Shown: positions 5,915-28,156, numbered from the stretch's first letter. The stretch is 35,324 nt of DNA from Planctomycetota bacterium (GCA_030622435.1 JAUXGE010000003.1:1-35324), one strand, 5' to 3'. Program-made: numbers and translations. The notes: generated from the letters alone by a model not told the origin.

Positions 5915-6011
5915 TAACAAAGCATTGAAGAAGGTGTGGCGTGGGCTTCCAGCTCACGTTTTCACCGGCTGGAAGCCGGTGCGAAAGAGAGCCTTTTCCA
6001 ACAGGCTGCTA
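5915..6011. mobile_element. MITE-like element with IS-type ends and internal REP-like doublet (same family as 26908-27011)
   Basis: Right end TTTTCCAACAGGCTGCTA, degenerate left end TAACAAAGCATTGAAGAA; core GTGGCGTGGGCTTCCAGC...CACCGGCTGGAAGCCGGTGC nearly identical to the core of the 26908-27011 copy. Confidence 0.7.
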
Positions 6012-7158: not shown

Positions 7159-9186
7159 TCAAGGTGCACACGCCCCGGTACCATCGCAGTAATCGTTCGG
7201 CCACACGCACTCGCCGTCTGGATCCTGCCCCGCCGGGATGTAAGAGCAAGTGCCCTCACTTCCAGCGAGGTCGCACCGCATGCAAAGTGCGCCGCAGCCC
7301 GAACTGCAACACACGTAGTCAACGCAGAAGCCGCTCATGCACTCGGCGGGGCCGCCGCACGACCAACCCGGACAACCCTCGTCAGTGTCACCGTCGCAGT
7401 CGTCGTCGAACCCGTTGCAGATCTCGATGTCGTTGCCCGACGTGTCGCTACAGATCAATGAACCACCCCCGCAGTAGTAAGTGCCCTCCGGGCAGAAGTC
7501 GGTGTCCGGCCCGTCACAGAGAGTGCCCACTACTGGATCCTCGTCCCCGTCGGCGGATGCAGGATCGCAGTCGTTGTCGACGCCGTCACATACATCGAGG
7601 TCGTCCCCTGTCATGTCGTTGCAGACCAAGGTTCCCCCCTGGCACGAGAAAGTCCCTTCCGCGCAGAGATCACTGTCCATTCCGTCACAGAGAGTGCCCA
7701 CCTGCGGGTCCTCGGAACCATCGGGCGAGGCGGGATCACAGTCGTTGTCTACGCCGTCACATACATCGAGATCGTCACCCGTCATGTCGCTGCACCACAC
7801 AGATCCGCCTTGGCACGAGGAAACACCTTCATGACAGAGATCACTGTCCATTCCGTCACAGGAAATGCCCACCTGCGGGTCCTCGTCCCCGTCGGCCGAG
7901 GCGGGGTCACAGTCGTTGTCCATGCCGTCGCAGAGGTCAACGGTACTGCCGGTGTTGTCACTACACGACAGATATCCACCTTGGCACAAGAAAGTCCCTT
8001 CTACACAGAAATCGCTGTCGGGTCCGTCACAGGGAACACCCGTTTGCGGGTCCTCGGACCCGTCGGGCGAGGAAGGATCACAGTCGTTGTCGACACCGTC
8101 ACAAACATCGAGGTCGTCACCTGTCATGTCGCTGCAGACCAAGGCCATCGATTGGCACACAAAAGTCCCTTCTACACAGAGATCGCTGTCCGGTCCGTCA
8201 CATGGCACGCCCGTTTGCGGGTCCTCGGAACCATCGGCCGAGGAAGGATCGCAGTCATTGTCGACACCGTCACAAACATCGAGATCACTGCCCGTCGCGT
8301 CACTGCATGTTTGCGCGCCTCCTTCGCAGGAGGCCGTGCCCTCCGGACAGAGATCACTGTCCGGTCCGTCACAGGGAGCGCCGTACCAGGCTTCATCGAA
8401 ACCGTCCGCCGTGCCGTCATCGCAGTCGTTGTCCACCCAGTCGCAGGCCTCGAACGCGGTCGGATAGACCAATTCGTTGTCATCCTGGCAGTCCGCCGGG
8501 TGTCCGTCCGTGTCGTACGGATTGCTCGCATCGCAATTGTCGTAGCCGTCCCCGTCCTGATCGGCGCAGTCACACTCATCGCCTGCGCCGTCGTGATCCG
8601 TGTCGATCTGCCAGGGGTTGAACTCGCTCGGGCAGTTGTCGCATGCATCGCCCTTTGCGTCGTTGTCACCGTCCTCCTGGCCGGCATTGGCAGTGAATGG
8701 ACAGTTGTCCCCCGCGTTCGGGACTCCGTCGCCGTCGAGATCGGCAAGCCCGGCCGGGGATACAGAGGCCGCGTGAAGCGAATAGGGGGCGGGTGTGATC
8801 TCTTGACGCGGGCTCAGGACGACAAAATCCACGTCGGCTGTGCACATGACGGCCATCTCGAGCCAGCGGGCGTCGCCTTGGAACGCGCCCACGTCGAAGT
8901 CGAGCAGCACGGTGAATCGGCCTTCGCTCACATCGACGGGCTCGGGGTTCTCGCCCGTGCCGTCGAAGACAATCGCGTCGCCGATCTGGCTTCCCGGATC
9001 GACGCTCGCAGGATCGTCCCAGAGGCTAAAGGCCATCACGCACACGTCCGTGACCGGACTGTCGGCCTGTTTGAGCTCCCCCTGGTACGTAAACGCCGTG
9101 CCCATCGCGTATGGCTGCCCTTGCGCAGTCAATGCAGGGGCCAACAAGACCACCGCGCCAATCCACCATTTGTTTCTACCATTCAT
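7159..9186 (-). CDS. Secreted Cys/Asp-rich repeat protein (N-terminal TAFTYQG domain, thrombospondin type-3-like repeats, MopE-like CDGxDNDCD repeats)
   Basis: Signal peptide; DxDGDGVxxxGDNCP and GDACDNCP TSP3-like motifs; six 57-aa repeats; ATGA overlap with the upstream gene. Confidence 0.85.
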   Translation of the reverse strand: MNGRNKWWIGAVVLLAPALTAQGQPYAMGTAFTYQGELKQADSPVTDVCVMAFSLWDDPASVDPGSQIGDAIVFDGTGENPEPVDVSEGRFTVLLDFDVGAFQGDARWLEMAVMCTADVDFVVLSPRQEITPAPYSLHAASVSPAGLADLDGDGVPNAGDNCPFTANAGQEDGDNDAKGDACDNCPSEFNPWQIDTDHDGAGDECDCADQDGDGYDNCDASNPYDTDGHPADCQDDNELVYPTAFEACDWVDNDCDDGTADGFDEAWYGAPCDGPDSDLCPEGTASCEGGAQTCSDATGSDLDVCDGVDNDCDPSSADGSEDPQTGVPCDGPDSDLCVEGTFVCQSMALVCSDMTGDDLDVCDGVDNDCDPSSPDGSEDPQTGVPCDGPDSDFCVEGTFLCQGGYLSCSDNTGSTVDLCDGMDNDCDPASADGDEDPQVGISCDGMDSDLCHEGVSSCQGGSVWCSDMTGDDLDVCDGVDNDCDPASPDGSEDPQVGTLCDGMDSDLCAEGTFSCQGGTLVCNDMTGDDLDVCDGVDNDCDPASADGDEDPVVGTLCDGPDTDFCPEGTYYCGGGSLICSDTSGNDIEICNGFDDDCDGDTDEGCPGWSCGGPAECMSGFCVDYVCCSSGCGALCMRCDLAGSEGTCSYIPAGQDPDGECVWPNDYCDGTGACAP
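7370..8376 (-). repeat. Intragenic tandem repeat, 171-bp (57-aa) unit, ~6 copies
   Basis: CCGTCACA anchors recur at 7511, 7682, 7853, 8024, 8195 and 8366 (171-bp period). Confidence 0.9.
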
Positions 9187-11804
9187 CGCTCACCTCCTAT
9201 TGATTCCTCGGTCAATTTGTTGACGATTGTCTCCAGAGCGGCCAGGCGTACATCGAGCCGCTCGTTCTGTTTCTTCAATCTGTCGACCTCTGCATCCTTC
9301 TCTTTCACGATGTCATACAACCCCTGTATGGCTGCCAGGGCGACGCCGTCGGCGTCCTGCATATTGATGGCCGCGTCGCTTTCGCCGAATCCGAACTCGG
9401 CGAAGTCCTGCGCCACCGGCCCGATGTGGCGAATGGATGGGTCCTGGCTCTTCAGGTTGTACGTTTGAATGGGCAGCTCTGCCACTTGCTCAAGGGCTGC
9501 CCGTTGGTCTACCGGCTCGAAGTTCTCCTTCGTGTTCCGGTCGCTGACGCCGTTCCACGAGTTGCCCCCGGCGGAAACATAGACGCCGCTGGTCAGACCG
9601 GAACTCGTGTAGAAGTAAACGCCGCCGCTGGCCCGTGCAACCCAACGATTGTTGTTGTTGCACTCGACATCGGCAGTTGAGGAATCACCCCAGACGAAGC
9701 AGCCGGCATTGTTGGCTTTGGCCCTGTACCCGGCGGCGAGACTATACGACCCCTGGGCGCTGTTTTCCCTCCCTCCAGGAACGGTGGCGTGCCCGCCACC
9801 CGCGTTGTTCCCTTCACCGCCGGCGACCGTGGCCCACGAGCTGCTAGCCGTGTTGTTGTAGCCGCCGCCTACGAAGCTGTACCAGTTGCTTGCGTCGCAA
9901 TGCCGTCCACCGACTACGGCGGAATAGGTTCCGGTCGCGTTGCAGTCGCTGCCGCCGGCAACTGTAGCATGGCCTTCGCCCGCGCCGCTGGCAGTGTTGC
10001 CGTGTCCACCTGCAACCGTGGAATAGGCAGTGCTCGCAAGGTTGTTGTTTCCACCACCGACCGTCCCATAGTTGGCTGCAACGCGGTTGGCGGCACCGGA
10101 GGCTCCGCCACCACTGACGGTACCCCCGTAAACGCCGGCGGATACGTAGTTGTCGGCGTATCCGGCAACGAAGTTCGGGCTCGTGGCATCAGTTTCAATG
10201 CGTAGCCCACGGCCGCCGTTGACGTGAAGTTCCAGGTCGCCGCTGGAGCTTATCACGTTTGTCGTACCGTTGATGGTGATCGAGCTGCCGCTCGTGATGG
10301 TTCCGCTCGCGTGAATGTTCCCATCGACGTCCAGGCGCTCGCCGGGACTTACCGTTCCGATGCCCACATCGCCGTCGCTCTTGATCGTCAGTCGAGGCAA
10401 CGATGAGCTGGATCCGGCCGGCGTTGTGTTCAGCACAAGCCGACCGGGCATGTCGCTCGTTCCGGGCGTGCCATCCGCGAAGGCCGTAATTGACGCGGAA
10501 TTACGGTAGGCACTGCCGTCATACCCCCGAAAGCGAATTGCGCCTGTCCGGTCGTCCTCCACCAGGGAGGCCGGTGTTCCAATAGATCCGCGGCTGTTCT
10601 CAAAGTCGAAGCTCCAGGATCCACCGTCTGAGTACGAACGGTGTTTGGGGTCGAAGTTGACCATGTGAAAGCTGTTTCTTACGTCGAGTAGCGCGCCGGG
10701 GCTGTTGGTGCCGATCCCGACGCCGCCCGAAGCCCGAATGAGGAACTGGTCGTTGCCGGTGGAGGTGAAGTCGGCATCGGTCGAATCGGCCCAGACGAAC
10801 GTTCCCTGATGGTTCACGATGGCGCGGCGTCCAGCCGCTAGGCTGAAGTCACCTTCTGCGCGGTTGTACGTTCCTCCGGGGATCGCGCTGTACTCGCCGC
10901 TTGCCGTATTGCGATACCCGCCGGCCACGGTCGCGTACGTCGTTTCGGTCCGATTGGACCGGCCTCCACCAACGACGCTGGCCTCTCCATCGGCCACGTT
11001 GCTCTCTCCGCCACCGACCGTAGACCACGGCCGGTTTGCGATGCTCGCGCGCCCGCCTCCAACAGTGGCGTACGTCGCGAGTGCCGTGTTGTAGGCGCCT
11101 CCTGAGATTGTCGCAAACATCGCATCTGACGGGTCGCCGTCTATTGTACCGGCCCGGTTGAACGCGCCGCCGGCCACTGTGCCATGGTCGTCGGTAACGG
11201 CGTTTAACTGTCCTCCGCCGATGGTTGCGTGGGCGCCGCCGGCCTCATTGTATTCGCCGCCGCCGATAACACCGAAGTCACCAGTGATGGTTTGCGCAGC
11301 CCCAGTGGACCCGCCTCCGCCGATCGTTGCACCCGCCACGCCTGCAGCGACATCGTTGCTGGGAGAGCCGCCGATGATGTTCGGGCTGGAAGGATCCTGC
11401 TCAGTGCGCAGCCCAGGCAAAGCCAGCGCATGTGGCGCCGGCGTCAGCTCTGTGCGCGGACTGAGTGTCTCCAGTGTGCATCCGCCGGAAGGGCAGCAGA
11501 CGGCCATCTCCAGCCAGCGGGCCTGGCCGTTGAACTGCTCGCCGAAGTCCAACTCCATGGTAAAGAGACCTTCGTTGACGACCACGGCGGCAAGAGACAA
11601 CGTCGTGGAAAGCTGGTTCCCATCCGACGGTTCGTCATAGAGGCCGAAAGCGAACTCGCATGAACCCGTGACTGGGCTACCTTCGCTAGCAAGGTGCCCC
11701 TGATACGTGAAGGCCGTGCCCATCGGAGCCGGTGCGCCGGTCGCACCGGCGAACGGGATCAGGAAACCCGAAATGACCACGACGACAAGAATTGGCTTTC
11801 TCAT
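9183..11804 (-). CDS. Secreted trimeric tail-fibre-like adhesin with C-terminal peptidase S74 intramolecular chaperone
   Basis: Signal peptide from ATG 11804 (GGGAG upstream); TAFTYQG N-domain; Gly-rich xTVxGGxxNxAxG repeats; VGIGTxSP shaft motifs; SDRNTKEN...HIGPVAQDF...LAAIQGL S74 signature plus terminal coiled coil. Confidence 0.85.
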   Translation of the reverse strand: MRKPILVVVVISGFLIPFAGATGAPAPMGTAFTYQGHLASEGSPVTGSCEFAFGLYDEPSDGNQLSTTLSLAAVVVNEGLFTMELDFGEQFNGQARWLEMAVCCPSGGCTLETLSPRTELTPAPHALALPGLRTEQDPSSPNIIGGSPSNDVAAGVAGATIGGGGSTGAAQTITGDFGVIGGGEYNEAGGAHATIGGGQLNAVTDDHGTVAGGAFNRAGTIDGDPSDAMFATISGGAYNTALATYATVGGGRASIANRPWSTVGGGESNVADGEASVVGGGRSNRTETTYATVAGGYRNTASGEYSAIPGGTYNRAEGDFSLAAGRRAIVNHQGTFVWADSTDADFTSTGNDQFLIRASGGVGIGTNSPGALLDVRNSFHMVNFDPKHRSYSDGGSWSFDFENSRGSIGTPASLVEDDRTGAIRFRGYDGSAYRNSASITAFADGTPGTSDMPGRLVLNTTPAGSSSSLPRLTIKSDGDVGIGTVSPGERLDVDGNIHASGTITSGSSITINGTTNVISSSGDLELHVNGGRGLRIETDATSPNFVAGYADNYVSAGVYGGTVSGGGASGAANRVAANYGTVGGGNNNLASTAYSTVAGGHGNTASGAGEGHATVAGGSDCNATGTYSAVVGGRHCDASNWYSFVGGGYNNTASSSWATVAGGEGNNAGGGHATVPGGRENSAQGSYSLAAGYRAKANNAGCFVWGDSSTADVECNNNNRWVARASGGVYFYTSSGLTSGVYVSAGGNSWNGVSDRNTKENFEPVDQRAALEQVAELPIQTYNLKSQDPSIRHIGPVAQDFAEFGFGESDAAINMQDADGVALAAIQGLYDIVKEKDAEVDRLKKQNERLDVRLAALETIVNKLTEESIGGER

Positions 11805-21129: not shown

Positions 21130-21777
21130 ATGTAGCTCAGCCGCCCCCGGCTGAGTGCTTGCAGCCACAAGCAGCGGACCGCTAATGCCGTTTCCAGAAA
21201 GGTACGGCTGTTTCTCTTCCCCCCTTGCCAAGGGGGGACTGAGGGAGGTCGGCCAACGCCAAAGAACCTCCCCCAACCCCTCCTGGGAAAAGAGGGGAGC
21301 AAGCCCCAGTAGGGGCGAAAGGCATCGGCCCACGGCGTGAGCCGTGGGAATAAGGACGTGCAATACAAAATGAGCCCCGAAGGGGCGACACGCGGATTCT
21401 CGTGGAGGTCGGATGCACGGCGTGTGTTAGCACTACAGCGCAAGGTCATGTGTAGCGCAGGCTTCCAGCCTGCACGAACTGCGATTACGATGCAGGCAGG
21501 ATGCCTGCGCTACAAGTCTGTGACGACTTTGCGCTGTACTGTTAGGATGGAGTGCCGTCCCTACGGGACTGCATATGTCGAGACCGGGTCCTGGCCCCAC
21601 GGCTCACGCCGTGGGCTACGGACTGTCGTCCCTACGGGACTGCACCACAGGGATCGACAAGAAGACTAGCGCTGCTCGCCAAGAGTTACGATACAGCCGT
21701 TTCCCGGGTTTGTCCCGAGGAATCATGGGAATTCGGTCAACGAGACCAGTATCAGAACTTCTGGCGCGTAGGACTGG
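21130..21777. repeat. Mosaic of several REP-like families and TIR-bounded miniature elements
   Basis: GTAG-REP hairpin 21131-21155; CCCCCCTT..AAGGGGGG doublet 21219-21299; inverted triple-REP arms 21302-21390 and 21553-21641; TIR elements 21428-21544 (17/20) and 21666-21777 (20/29). Confidence 0.75.
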
Positions 21778-24465: not shown

Positions 24466-25086
24466 TCAAACTGCGACCCTGCGTCGTCCACGAAGGAGCG
24501 CAAACAGACCGAGCCCCACAAGAAGAACTGTCCCCGGTTCGGGGATGGGCGTGAAGAAGAAAGACTGAATATCCGCAAGGCTCCTTCCGCGGTAAATCCA
24601 CACCTCGCTGATCGGTGTGTCTGAGAGCACGCCAAGAAACAACGGGTATTGGGGACCCACAAGGAACTCGATTCCCATTGGAGTACCGTCAACCCCGTAG
24701 GCAGACATGTAGCTGTCACCCGCAAAGAAGATTCCAGCTGCGGAGGCAGGCGTGACAAGCTCCGCGATAATCCCGTTTCGCAAGTCGACAGGGTAGCAAT
24801 CGGCCGTCAACCCGAACCCGGAGAGAGGGTTCCCGGTGATAAAGAGCTCGGGTTGCCAGGATGAAAATGTCACCCCCTGGGTCGTGTAGTTGAACTCCGG
24901 CGTGATATGCTCTCCACCGGAGGGCCGGGTGCCGTCGGGCAGGGTTTCGAAGTCGATCTCGTGAACCTCGCCAGCGGCCGCGAGGAACCCGTCGTAGTCG
25001 TTGATGAACCAAACCGGGCCGGCCTGGGCCGGTGCTGCCGCCGCCAGAATCACGGTGGTGCTGAAAATGATGCCGATCGCGCGCAC
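24466..25086 (-). CDS. PEP-CTERM sorting-domain surface protein (paralog 1)
   Basis: Signal peptide; C-terminal IPEPGT + TM + RGRRR; GTG start with AAGGAG RBS. Confidence 0.9.
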   Translation of the reverse strand: MRAIGIIFSTTVILAAAAPAQAGPVWFINDYDGFLAAAGEVHEIDFETLPDGTRPSGGEHITPEFNYTTQGVTFSSWQPELFITGNPLSGFGLTADCYPVDLRNGIIAELVTPASAAGIFFAGDSYMSAYGVDGTPMGIEFLVGPQYPLFLGVLSDTPISEVWIYRGRSLADIQSFFFTPIPEPGTVLLVGLGLFALLRGRRRVAV

Positions 25087-25234
25087 GGGATTTGCTCCTT
25101 ACGTGTGCGGGAGCGAAGAAACGCTCTACCGATAATTCTACCCGCGCACCATGCGGGAGGTCAACAATGAAGTCAGATTCTTCTCCGATGAAATCGCATC
25201 TAACGAAGCGGCGAGCGTCGAGCCCACGCGCCAC
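25036..25234. repeat. 199-bp direct repeat, copy 1 (promoter + RBS + signal-peptide codons)
   Basis: Aligns to 25827-26025 (offset 791) with 5 mismatches by eye. Confidence 0.93.
25135..25164 (-). promoter_or_regulatory. sigma70-type promoter of PEP-CTERM paralog 1
   Basis: Minus strand TTGACC-N18-TAGAAT; spacer contains the inverted pair CCCGC/GCGGG. Confidence 0.65.
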
Positions 25235-25259: not shown

Positions 25260-25877
25260 TCAAACGGCAACCTGATGACGCGCCCGAAGGAGCGCCATCG
25301 CACCAAAGCCCACAAGCAAGATGGTCCCTGGCTCGGGAATTGGTGCGAACACAAAGTCGTTGCAGACGGCAAAGGTTGTGCCGCGGTCCAACGTGACCGA
25401 CGCGATCGGTACTTCGGACACAACGCCAAGGAATAGCACCCCTTGGCCCCCATAGTCCTCGCTTCCGAGCAACGTTCCCGCGGAGTCGTAGATGGACACC
25501 ATCGTATAGGCGGGGTAAAACGTCCCGACGGCGAACGCTGGGACGGTCAGCTCGCCGACAATCCAGTTTCGCACCGACAAGGGATAGGCGTCTGCCCCCA
25601 GCGCGTACCCTGACACATCGTTACCCTCGAGGAACAAGTGCGGGACTGGGGTGGAGAAGGTCACACCCTCGTCGGTGTAGTTGAAATCCGGCGTGATCTC
25701 CGCGCGGGGGAAACTCGACGTCCCGTCGGGCAGTGTGTCAAAGTCGATCGTCTGAACGACCCGCGCGGCTGCCACAAAACCTTCGTAGTCGTCATAGAAC
25801 CAAATCGGCCCGCCCTTGGTCGGCAGTGCCGCCGCCAGAATCGCCGTGGTGCTGAAAATGATGCCGATCGCGCGCAT
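25260..25877 (-). CDS. PEP-CTERM sorting-domain surface protein (paralog 2)
   Basis: Signal peptide; IDFDTLPDGT and ITPDFNYTxxGVTFS motifs shared with paralog 1; IPEPGT + TM + basic tail. Confidence 0.9.
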   Translation of the reverse strand: MRAIGIIFSTTAILAAALPTKGGPIWFYDDYEGFVAAARVVQTIDFDTLPDGTSSFPRAEITPDFNYTDEGVTFSTPVPHLFLEGNDVSGYALGADAYPLSVRNWIVGELTVPAFAVGTFYPAYTMVSIYDSAGTLLGSEDYGGQGVLFLGVVSEVPIASVTLDRGTTFAVCNDFVFAPIPEPGTILLVGFGAMALLRARHQVAV

Positions 25878-26025
25878 GGGATTTGCTCCTTACGTGTGCG
25901 GGAGCGAAGAAACGCTCTACCGATAATTCTACCCCCGCACCATGCGGGAGGTCAACAATGAAGTCAGATTCTTCTCCGATGAAATCGCATCTAACGAAGC
26001 GGCGAGCGTCGGGCCCACGCGCCAC
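25827..26025. repeat. 199-bp direct repeat, copy 2
   Basis: Near-identical to 25036-25234; includes a minus-strand TTGACC-N18-TAGAAT promoter at 25926-25955. Confidence 0.93.
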
Positions 26026-26195
26026 CGTGTCAGCTACCTGCCCGGACCACACTCACCTGTGCCGCACTCAATCATACGTCGAGATCCGGCCCGCAACCCG
26101 ATCGTGGATGGGTCGCACGGAAAGCCCAGCATACGCCAGCGCCCGCACCCCAAGGTGCGGCCTGCCGGGCGTTGTAACCGGAATGTCACGGGCAT

Positions 26196-26223
26196 TTGAC
26201 AATGAGCCAGGATGTTGTATACT
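26196..26223 (+). promoter_or_regulatory. sigma70-type promoter for the small-peptide transcript
   Basis: TTGACA (26196-26201)-N16-TATACT (26218-26223). Confidence 0.7.
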
Positions 26224-26290
26224 TTGTTTGTACGGTTCAAACCTCCAGAACCGGCTGATACGACTGTTCTTTGCTGAAAGGATTCGGATT

Positions 26291-26344
26291 ATGTTTTTCT
26301 TGATCGAGCTCGCCAATAGGTTCCTTGTTGCTCTATTCAACTAA
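26291..26344 (+). CDS. Unannotated 17-aa hydrophobic, Phe-rich peptide MFFLIELANRFLVALFN
   Basis: AAAGGA SD 8 nt upstream of the ATG; lies between a near-consensus promoter and a strong terminator. Confidence 0.6.
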   Translation: MFFLIELANRFLVALFN

Positions 26345-26369
26345 GTCCTGAGAACGGGGCAATGCTTCT

Positions 26370-26406
26370 GCCGAGCCGGGCTGATCGCCCGGCTCGGCCT
26401 TTTTTT
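26370..26406 (+). terminator. Intrinsic terminator
   Basis: Perfect 12-bp stem GCCGAGCCGGGC/GCCCGGCTCGGC, 5-nt loop, then C + T7. Confidence 0.9.
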
Positions 26407-26832
26407 CGCTTCATGCCCAACCCGACAGGGCCTATGTGCCTTTGACATCCTTGGTAAGCTAGTTCCCCTTCCCGTCAAGAAACCAACGCGACTTAAGCCT
26501 GATCCCCGTCCACAGCCCTCTTCGAAAGCGGTGCCCGTCCGATAATAACCGGAGGTTCAGCCTCGACTTTCTTTTCGTGCAAGAAAGGCTCGTGGTCCCG
26601 AGCGATCTGGCAGAGCTGCAAAGTAGAAGACGGCACCCGGCCGTGTAGGCCGACTTCCCTGTGCAACACTCAACCATACTCGAGCTTTGGCCCTCGATGC
26701 CGATAGCGGCGGCATCGCACGAAACGCCCAGCGTACGCCAACGCGTGCGGCCACGCCCCAGCGCGCGGGCCGGGTATTCCAACCGCGATGTCGCCCCCTC
26801 GATAACCAGCGTGACGCAGTTCGCGCGGCCGT

Positions 26833-26861
26833 TTGACACTTGTGCGATAGCTGACTAGACT
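26833..26861 (+). promoter_or_regulatory. sigma70-type promoter upstream of DAHP synthase
   Basis: TTGACA (26833-26838)-N17-TAGACT (26856-26861). Confidence 0.7.
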
Positions 26862-26907
26862 GTCCGATTCGCCATGCGCGTCCGTAACTCTTTGCAGGGC
26901 GGACACT

Positions 26908-27011
26908 TAGCAGGCTGTTGAAAAAAGTGTGGCGTGGGCTTCCAGCCCGCGTTTTCACCGGTCGGAAGCCGGTGCCACACAGCAGAGATGCCTTTTTTCA
27001 ACAGGCTGTCA
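26908..27011. mobile_element. MITE-like element with IS-type TIRs and internal REP-like doublet
   Basis: TAGCAGGCTGTTGAAAAAA / TTTTTTCAACAGGCTGTCA (16/19 inverted match); second copy at 5915-6011. Confidence 0.75.
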
Positions 27012-27091
27012 GACCCGGGGTATCGACCTGGAATGCCACATGCCATCTCGTACACGCGAAGATCAACCCCGGGGGAATTGAGAAAACACTC

Positions 27092-28156
27092 ATGGACCTG
27101 ATCGTCGTCATGAAATCCAGTGCCGCGGGCGATGACGTACATCGCGTCGTCGATCGCGTGTCAGAGCTGGGCATGAAGCCTCACATCTCGAAGGGCGAGT
27201 ACCGTACGATCGTCGGCGCCATTGGGGAGAAGACCCCACAGGCGCAGGAGCAGCTCGAGCAGCTCCCCGGCGTCGATCAGGTGATGAGCATCTCCGAGCC
27301 CTACCGCCTCGCCTCCCGCGAGTTCCACGAGGCCGATACCATCCTCGACATCAAGGGCATTCGCATCGGCGGGCCGCACGTGAACATCATCGCCGGCCCC
27401 TGTGCCATCGAGAGCCGGGACGTGCTGTTCGACGTGGGACAGGCGGTCAAGGACGCCGGGGCAGCCATCCTTCGCGGCGGGGCTTACAAGCCCCGAAGCT
27501 CTCCCTACTCCTTCAGCGGTATGGGGCGCGAGGGTCTCGAACTCCTCAAAGAGGCCGGCGAGCACCTCGGCATGCCGACCATTACGGAGGTGATGGATCC
27601 GCGCGACGTAGAGGCCGTATACGACTACGCCGACATCTTCCAGGTCGGCGCCCGCAACATGCACAACTTCAACCTGCTGCTCGAAGTCGGCAAGACGGAC
27701 AAGCCGGTCTTCATCAAGCGGGGAATCGCCGCCTCCGTCACCGAGCTGCTAATGTCGGCCGAGTACGTCCTGAGCCAGGGCAACCACCGCGTGATGCTCT
27801 GCGAGCGCGGCATCAGGACGTTCGCCGAGGAGACGCGGTACACGCTGGATGTGTCGGCCATACCTGTGATCCAGGGGCGGTCGCACCTGCCGGTCTTCAT
27901 CGACCCGTCGCATGCGGCCGGCAAGCGTGACCTGGTTCCGCCCCTGACGCTCGCCGGCATTGCGGTCGGGGCGGCCGGCGCCATCGTTGAGGTCCATAGC
28001 TGTCCCGATCGAGCGTTGTGTGACGGTCCACAGGCGGTTTTGCCGAAGAACTTCGTGAGGCTCATGGAGCAAATCCGCCAGATTGCGGACATCGTCGGGC
28101 ACCGGGTTACGCAATGGGGAGAAGGCTCGCATCCTGCTGATCCGTTAGGGAAATAG
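27092..28156 (+). CDS. aroF: 3-deoxy-7-phosphoheptulonate (DAHP) synthase, class I-beta with N-terminal regulatory domain
   Basis: IAGPCAIES, LRGGAYKPRSSPYSF, QVGARNM, LCERGIRTF and DPSHAAG motifs; N-terminal LIVVMK ferredoxin-like domain. Confidence 0.95.
   Translation: MDLIVVMKSSAAGDDVHRVVDRVSELGMKPHISKGEYRTIVGAIGEKTPQAQEQLEQLPGVDQVMSISEPYRLASREFHEADTILDIKGIRIGGPHVNIIAGPCAIESRDVLFDVGQAVKDAGAAILRGGAYKPRSSPYSFSGMGREGLELLKEAGEHLGMPTITEVMDPRDVEAVYDYADIFQVGARNMHNFNLLLEVGKTDKPVFIKRGIAASVTELLMSAEYVLSQGNHRVMLCERGIRTFAEETRYTLDVSAIPVIQGRSHLPVFIDPSHAAGKRDLVPPLTLAGIAVGAAGAIVEVHSCPDRALCDGPQAVLPKNFVRLMEQIRQIADIVGHRVTQWGEGSHPADPLGK

Follow-up and report, generated by a model that had tools for sequence, protein, structure and literature searches.

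A candidate small-RNA-type gene in the gap upstream of a planctomycete DAHP synthase gene

The subject of this report is a short gene-like unit, here called the mini-gene, at positions 26,196 to 26,406 of a 35,324-nucleotide (nt) stretch of DNA from a Planctomycetota bacterium (GCA_030622435.1 JAUXGE010000003.1:1-35324). The whole stretch was analysed and is referred to as the window. The mini-gene comprises a promoter, a 17-codon open reading frame (ORF) preceded by a Shine-Dalgarno sequence (SD) and an intrinsic terminator, and it sits in a 1.2-kb gap with a minus-strand gene for a PEP-CTERM protein on one side and the plus-strand gene for DAHP synthase (aroF) on the other. Our analysis suggests that it is an autonomous, lineage-specific gene of the small-RNA type, with the RNA as its probable main product and an ORF that is possibly translated as well; we give this reading a probability of about 0.4. 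The underlying transcription unit is very likely real, as judged from its signals. Spacing and modelled folds argue against an attenuation link between it and the DAHP synthase gene, which removes the attractive idea of a DAHP synthase controlled through phenylalanine (Phe) attenuation.

Promoter, terminator and predicted transcript

The evidence for a transcription unit lies in the rarity of its two boundary signals and in their arrangement. The signals were counted in the window together with 73 DAHP-synthase loci from related genomes (about 21 kb per genome, the closest relative having 85% DAHP synthase identity). In these 2.28 million strand-bases, promoter matches of at least 11/12 positions occur 21 times, and the only one in the window is that of the mini-gene. 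Strict intrinsic terminators occur 22 times in the same material, and in a separate scan the mini-gene terminator was the only one in the window with a long stem. Just two promoter-terminator pairs lie 40-400 nt apart on the same strand, those of the mini-gene and of an unrelated unit in one of the relatives. Furthermore, of all 120-nt stretches in the window the richest in AT falls inside the mini-gene: it has a G+C content (GC) of 41.7%, which is about 4.4 standard deviations under the mean of the window (61.6%, with a standard deviation of 4.6). Such a low GC in a 62% GC genome argues for selection or for recent gain. If one such promoter and one such terminator were placed randomly in the window, this arrangement would arise, by our own arithmetic, with a chance of about 361/70648, or 0.005. 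The pairing of promoter and terminator is far beyond chance.

The near-consensus sigma-70 promoter would start a transcript of about 176 nt near 26230. The strong terminator, in which a 5-nt loop and a single C behind the stem are followed by T7 at 26400-26406, would end it at the U-run. We infer transcription of the unit, and its exact 5′ end, from these signals. The first-pass annotation of this DNA had described a TTGACA-N16-TATACT promoter, a leader of about 60 nt and a perfect 12-base-pair (bp) terminator with T7, which together would form a self-contained unit apart from aroF, and this description holds. Promoter (11/12 matches) and terminator (26370-26406) are both present, the leader measures about 61 nt from the presumed start, and the separateness from aroF is borne out by the promoter scan, the rarity of terminators and the spacing counts. 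A promoter of its own had also been ascribed to aroF, and it is there (10/12 matches), whereas the distance of about 690 nt given for this gene needs correction: aroF starts 748 nt past the stop of the mini-ORF and 686 nt past the T-run.

The RNA, its open reading frame and competing explanations

In the predicted fold of the transcript, the 9-nt loop of the 5′ hairpin, AAACCUCCA, is 100% unpaired in the ensemble. It holds CCUCC (26242-26246), an anti-Shine-Dalgarno-like motif, and a CCUCC lying wholly unpaired in a hairpin loop arose in only 6 of 1000 shuffles (0.6%). The first-pass annotation had missed this loop, as it had missed a 139-nt block upstream of the mini-gene that recurs upstream of the aroF promoter. 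Being single-stranded, the CCUCC could pair in trans with the SDs of target mRNAs. The predicted trans-acting role would be in keeping with the rest of the molecule, in that the 5′ hairpin would be followed by a U-rich, weakly structured body and by a 3′ end of hairpin and U7, the usual build of a base-pairing small RNA. The mini-gene has its own promoter and an intrinsic terminator, it is intergenic, and it contains no long coding frame with a Pfam match or relatives, all of which agrees with such a build. Most orphan units of this size are small RNAs that act by base-pairing, and 17 residues is below nearly all validated bacterial small proteins; it is because of these two points, the second of which makes the product exceptionally short, that we rank the small-RNA reading first. 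A scan for transfer and transfer-messenger RNAs found none.

The ORF may be translated as well, which would make the transcript a dual-function RNA, although its SD is weak and predicted to be paired. This SD, AAAGGA at 26277-26282, lies 8 nt 5′ of the ATG at 26291 and forms 5 bp only with the anti-SD. Its unpaired probability in the ensemble is 0.02 (98% paired), with 26267-26272 as partners at probabilities of 0.92-0.97, and hence the AAAGGA may merely be the arm of a hairpin. The first-pass annotation had named TTCTTT at 26267-26272 and TCCTT at 26322-26326 as elements able to occlude the SD, and ORF, SD and both candidates are indeed present. A hairpin that it drew over the last codons fared less well, as it appears in the minimum free energy (MFE) structure and not in the centroid. 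Two modest signals thus seem to diverge in the same RNA: the ORF with its SD would favour translation, while the exposed CCUCC together with the paired SD would favour a riboregulator. The two are mutually compatible.

A number of results weigh against a small-RNA gene. The rarity of an ORF with an SD of this kind, given below, leaves peptide coding about equally well supported. About half of the inspected genes in the window have a recognisable SD, the strongest being AAGGAG (at the two PEP-CTERM genes and at one for a peptidase) or AGGAGG (before a gene of 675 amino acids, aa), and the other genes have none. The 0.6% figure for the loop flatters the signal, because the motif was chosen after folding and CCTCC is common: 117 of 1000 shuffles contain it somewhere, and the window holds 89 copies. 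Compared with shuffles, the transcript reaches z = -3.2 with its terminator and z = +0.34 without it, and since the terminator-less body folds no better than shuffled sequence, the RNA is not highly structured. At the gathering threshold, no Rfam family was matched by the unit. When matches with E up to 10 were allowed over 25880-27100, eeev_FSE came first with 19.7 of 80 bits and E = 0.49 at 26938-26992, and within the unit itself McaS came first (20 of 42 bits, E = 1), covering the terminator only. Nor did a target stand out among 14 gene starts of the window in whole-length duplex folding (z from -1.9 to +1.6), and the aroF leader, the PEP-CTERM 5′ region and five other 5′ regions showed an ungapped complementarity that 85-195 of 200 shuffles also reached. 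The unit (26190-26410) was found in 0/73 of the related loci (blastn with word size 7 and E up to 0.1; nhmmer with E up to 1), and with the peptide as tblastn query the best E among the matches listed was 0.15, which is noise. The first-pass annotation had proposed such searches as a check for Phe codons that are conserved and linked to aro or phe genes; in the 73 DAHP-synthase loci they returned no homologue. Three frames across the unit (a 153-aa read-through, a 90-aa antisense and a 41-aa in-frame one) found nothing in a set of 5.8 billion proteins, which did not return the window's own gene calls either, and plasmid and phage collections searched in distant mode gave no match to the unit. 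As no homologue was found in these loci and collections, neither covariation nor conservation backs any function.

The same unit can be explained without a separate role for its RNA, namely as a small mRNA for a membrane-associated peptide, MFFLIELANRFLVALFN, a 17-residue hydrophobic helix whose translation would be throttled by the SD hairpin. We place this on the unlikely side, although several observations speak for it. A closed ORF of 15 codons or more that begins with ATG and has a 5-mer SD at a suitable distance, here 8 nt, arose in only 56 of 5000 dinucleotide shuffles (1.1%; 219 of 5000 if GTG and TTG are allowed as start codons), the host uses SDs, the stop lies 25 nt ahead of the terminator, and the second codon position is enriched in T (11 of 17 codons, versus 5 and 5 at the other positions). 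Residues 1-15 include 12 from the set I, V, L, F, C, M and A, and the C-terminus reads ...LFN. The heuristics for small membrane toxins set out in the available part of Fozo et al. 2010 (PMC2887945) are an ORF of 16-70 aa and at least 10 of 15 residues from this set, which the isolated mini-ORF fits. However, the product would be very short, E6 and R10 break its hydrophobic stretch, the SD has just 5 bp to the anti-SD and is largely paired, and neither loci nor protein searches revealed conservation. The hydrophobic, Phe-rich make-up is expected of T-rich sequence: at least four Phe codons were present in 304 of 5508 open 17-codon stretches (5.5%) in dinucleotide shuffles of the T-rich body. 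Hence, the Phe richness in the first-pass annotation stands as a count, four of 17 codons at positions 2, 3, 11 and 16 with a tandem pair at 2-3, and not as an excess over chance. The amphipathic helical face that it proposed does not rise above chance either, because the hydrophobic moment of 0.383 was equalled or exceeded in 2033 of 20000 permutations (about 10%). A step further would be a type I toxin-antitoxin locus, which we hold to be very unlikely; the peptide would then be a membrane toxin whose translation is blocked by antisense RNA transcribed from the other strand. Length (17 aa), the 12/15 hydrophobic residues, isolation and a polar/aromatic C-terminus fit the heuristics of PMC2887945, as far as its available part gives them, the SD is predicted to be sequestered, and IbsA with its 19 residues illustrates, in the accessible portion of bioRxiv 10.1101/2025.05.26.656083, that toxins of such small size exist. 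Weak promoter-like sites are present on the minus strand at 26316-26288 (9/12) and 26478-26451. The latter, TTGACG-N16-TACCAA, had been put forward as a convergent promoter for an antisense RNA; the sequence is there, but it fails the promoter scan and its -10 is without the invariant last T, so that it is not a credible promoter. The 9/12 site is the only minus-strand promoter match in the unit and lies in AT-rich DNA, where matches would be expected. On the minus strand of the window, a strict scan gave no terminator at all, two weak ones from another scan (26644-26630 and 26603-26588) lie outside the unit, and folds of the antisense strand show only the palindromic terminator. Furthermore, the helix is charged in its middle, the lack of significant amphipathicity counts here too, and of the multiple copies looked to by the first-pass annotation none was seen in the window or in the 73 loci, in tandem or otherwise. 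Thus, from its proposal of an independent membrane-active or toxin-like mRNA, the small independent transcript with a sequestered SD is supported and the membrane-active or toxin part is not. A literature search for type I toxin-antitoxin systems in Planctomycetes turned up no related paper. That the unit has no function at all, being a recently acquired or decaying fragment with chance promoter and terminator signals or an assembly artefact in a repeat-rich gap, we regard as unlikely. It would agree with the lack of conservation in any accessible relative, with the duplication patchwork of the surrounding 1.2-kb gap and with the long ORFs that most of the 14 closest loci have at about 100-430 nt from the DAHP synthase start. 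Yet the best promoter of the window coincides with its best terminator and its lowest GC, in the right order and on the same strand, for which chance gives about 0.005, and the ORF with its SD and the exposed CCUCC add to this.

The DAHP synthase gene is the next gene on the strand, and the first-pass annotation had offered as one of its two readings a Phe-sensing leader-peptide attenuator, in which stalling at the Phe codons would cause read-through of the terminator into this gene. Four Phe codons with a tandem pair at codons 2-3, a terminator 25 nt past the stop and the 139-nt upstream block common to the aroF promoter region would all suit it. A screen for pheL, as described in the available part of PMC3082878, required an adjacent pair among a minimum of five in-frame Phe codons, all within 60 nt and at most 200 nt upstream of pheA, together with a terminator and an antiterminator; in the same source E. 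coli pheL has a run of seven. The four codons of the mini-ORF are below this minimum, and T-richness explains their number (5.5% of shuffled stretches). The terminator of -28.4 kcal/mol forms in the models with a ribosome masking codons 2-3, F11, F16 or the stop. Before its 3′ arm is made, the 5′ arm and loop have no other option than to pair weakly with codons 4-8, and a ribosome stalled at FF would mask this pairing; the modelled folds contain neither a competitive antiterminator nor a 1:2/2:3/3:4 set of alternative structures. Between the unit and aroF lie the 686 nt of non-coding DNA and the separate 10/12 promoter mentioned above. Among 49 Phycisphaerae-type loci, a strict terminator within 1.6 kb upstream of DAHP synthase was present in 0/49, and none has a homologue of the unit. 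With too few Phe codons, no antiterminator, a distant gene with its own promoter and nothing similar in relatives, the attenuator does not hold, and we consider it extremely unlikely. A trans-acting variant, in which the unit would sense the charging of Phe-tRNA on behalf of the shikimate pathway and the leader peptide would work in trans, receives just as little credence from us. The shared block of about 140 nt may mean that mini-gene and DAHP synthase gene answer to the same regulator, and translation of the mini-ORF, with FF at codons 2-3, could gate the stability of the RNA or the activity of its anti-SD loop. Such a sensor, if real, would count as one of the earliest functional small RNAs to be reported from Planctomycetota.

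Genomic neighbourhood and other elements of the window

Table 1. Features of the mini-gene and of its surroundings, in window coordinates
Feature	Position	Strand	Details
Sigma-70-type promoter	26196-26223	+	TTGACA, 16-nt spacer, TATACT; 11/12 matches; -35 at 26196-26201, -10 at 26218-26223
Predicted transcript, about 176 nt	26230-26406	+	from promoter, terminator and AT-rich island; start inferred from -10 box
Predicted 5′ hairpin	26233-26253	+	6-bp stem, 9-nt loop AAACCUCCA; MFE and centroid; -6.3 kcal/mol alone
Predicted hairpin 2	26261-26286	+	SD AAAGGA (26277-26282) paired with UUCUUU (26267-26272); core -3.5 kcal/mol
Candidate 17-codon ORF	26291-26344	+	MFFLIELANRFLVALFN plus TAA; ATG at 26291, TAA at 26342-26344; SD-led
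Possible imperfect hairpin over last codons and stop	26327-26363	+	MFE only, not centroid; weakly supported
Intrinsic terminator	26370-26406	+	perfect 12-bp stem (11 G-C pairs), 26370-26381/26387-26398; loop UGAUC, C, U7; -28.4 kcal/mol
Tandem PEP-CTERM genes	24466-25086 and 25260-25877	-	206 and 205 aa
PEP-CTERM protein gene next to the gap	25260-25877	-	second of the two tandem paralogues
GC-rich upstream block, copy 1	26045-26195		abuts mini-gene promoter; core 26056-26187
GC-rich upstream block, copy 2	26647-26800		distance to aroF promoter exceeds that of copy 1 to mini-gene promoter by about 35 nt
Own promoter of DAHP synthase gene	26833-26861	+	TTGACA, 17-nt spacer, TAGACT; 10/12 matches
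DAHP synthase gene (aroF)	27092-28156	+	type I-beta, N-terminal ferredoxin-like domain; outside the unit; Pfam DAHP_synth_1 7e-75, DAHP_snth_FXD 5e-21

Between the mini-ORF and the upstream gene, which starts at 25877, lie 413 nt, and between it and aroF lie 747 nt. The start codon of the DAHP synthase gene is the ATG at 27092, and the nearest gene start is 1215 nt from it. Downstream of aroF follow genes for triosephosphate isomerase, SecG, YicC, guanylate kinase and a CoaBC-type flavoprotein. The best relatives of this DAHP synthase, searched with a query that began at 27083 and so carried three extra residues, have 79-85% aa identity and come from metagenome-assembled Phycisphaerae and Planctomycetota genomes, none with an identical locus, and the host looks like a Phycisphaerae-like planctomycete. 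In most of the 14 closest loci, long ORFs, which are unannotated, end or begin about 100-430 nt from the DAHP synthase start (offsets of -129 in L007, -260 in L042, -322 in L004, -409 in L045, -382 in L003, -212 in L005, -289 in L027 and -102 in L036, the L numbers being our labels for the related loci), and three of the 14 (L002, L012 and L047) contain no clear long ORF. Because the ORFs of the relatives are mostly this close to DAHP synthase and the unit is unmatched among them, the long gap of the window, with its PEP-CTERM duplication and its mini-gene, appears to be lineage-specific.

This gap is a patchwork of duplications. The 146-nt 5′ regions of the two PEP-CTERM genes (25880-26025 and 25089-25234) are 98.6% identical, which points to a recent tandem duplication or to gene conversion. 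A partial third copy of the PEP-CTERM upstream sequence is seen past the first gene, where 24416-24455 matches 25988-26027 at 85%, on a scale of 26 to 40 nt. The two GC-rich blocks (26056-26187 and 26658-26792) are 70.5% identical over 139 nt and form the repeat families D1 and D2, with a spacing of 602 nt. An alignment of the mini-gene unit with the aroF unit 3′ of these blocks gave no detectable similarity, and the block was not found in the 73 related loci. It could be regulatory DNA common to both promoters, or it could be what remains of an old 602-nt tandem duplication. Alignment folds of the block on both strands, with two sequences only, yielded 2 and 6 compensatory pairs, too few to interpret.

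The frame of the mini-ORF is open for 153 codons upstream (25883-26344, plus strand), through the promoter and the GC-rich block, with an ATG at 25958 behind GGGAGG. As a gene, this extension has no Pfam match and no database relative, and we judge it to be a chance open frame of high-GC DNA. The long ORFs across the region (153, 85, 126 and 133 aa) likewise have no Pfam match, and their translations are Arg-rich junk; a 90-aa antisense frame across the unit has no database relative. AT-rich islands in two relatives (L042 near 4693 and L051 near 2480) were considered as possible homologues, which they are not; they look like ordinary promoter regions. A replication origin was discarded with 0 DnaA-box matches in the window. 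A mobile insertion was discarded too: TTTGACA is found at 26195 and 26442, but no terminal inverted repeats were seen by eye.

The other promoter-to-terminator unit of the data set lies at 11581-11732 (plus strand) of locus L061, which belongs to 'Candidatus Ribeiella danica' and has its DAHP synthase gene about 600 nt upstream of that position. The unit consists of TTGACG-17-TATAGT, an 11-bp stem and T7, measures about 116 nt and has no detectable similarity to the unit in the window; it may be another small RNA gene. The leader of aroF contains a long, near-perfect hairpin (26911-27008) with 17-nt outer arms, CAGGCTGTTGAAAAAAG and CTTTTTTCAACAGGCTG. A second copy in the window (5925-6008) has 82% identity, and relatives of the hairpin are dispersed in Phycisphaerae loci (L017 at 509-579, L039 at 8049-8115, and several sites in L051 and L071). 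It looks like a repeat of the repetitive extragenic palindromic (REP) or miniature inverted-repeat transposable element (MITE) type, and no Rfam family matches it. The only Rfam hits at threshold in the window are two inverted Acido-Lenti-1 motifs (RF01687) at 21596-21641 (plus strand) and 21302-21348 (minus strand), which reach 56.3 and 40.5 bits, the gathering score being 37, and sit in a hairpin-rich gap between an ndk gene and a cupin gene. Table 1 of PMC2864571 gives this motif for Acidobacteria and Lentisphaerae, and the genome in which it turns up here is Planctomycetota-like.

Significance and likeness to known systems

To our knowledge, the Planctomycetes-Verrucomicrobia-Chlamydiae (PVC) superphylum has hardly been explored for small RNAs or for very small proteins. 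A table in a 2022 survey (PMC9029176, available in part) lists 8 small-RNA families for the PVC group versus 345 for Proteobacteria. Against this background the mini-gene stands out as a clean candidate, its promoter and its terminator being textbook cases of signals that are both rare in this sequence, and it offers an easy target for transcript mapping or ribosome profiling in Phycisphaerae. On present evidence, as a single orphan locus for which neither conservation nor a target was found, it is a lead and not a discovery.

Among known systems, the attenuators of the pheL/pheA type come to mind, which like the mini-gene have neighbouring Phe codons in a short ORF and a terminator behind it, upstream of a gene of the aromatic pathway (PMC3082878, in its available part). 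The mini-ORF differs in having four Phe codons instead of the seven in a row of E. coli pheL or the minimum of five in the screen described in that part of the source. Furthermore, no alternative structure accompanies it, and the gene in question is 748 nt away with a promoter of its own. With type I loci of the ibs-sib kind, as the available portion of PMC2887945 presents them, it has in common a very short, hydrophobic and isolated ORF, a sequestered SD and its own promoter and terminator. Unlike in ibs-sib, no antisense RNA gene, tandem copies or homology were found here, and the predicted helix has charged residues in its middle.

RNAIII of Staphylococcus, which encodes delta-haemolysin, and SgrS, which encodes SgrT, are dual-function small RNAs. 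The mini-gene would resemble them in that an SD-led short ORF for a helical peptide is embedded in a transcript of small-RNA size with a candidate base-pairing loop; it differs in a peptide of only 17 residues and in that both translation and base-pairing are predictions here. RsaE/RoxS of Firmicutes and the alpha-proteobacterial small RNAs with CCUCC-type loops act in trans through C-rich anti-SD loops. The mini-gene has no sequence or Rfam relationship to these RNAs, carries one CCUCC loop where they have several C-rich motifs, and yielded neither a target in the 5′ regions of the window nor conservation in the 73 loci. What it shares with them is the overall plan, an intergenic gene with its own sigma-70 promoter, a predicted RNA of 100-200 nt with an exposed C-rich or CCUCC loop, and a terminator with a U-run.

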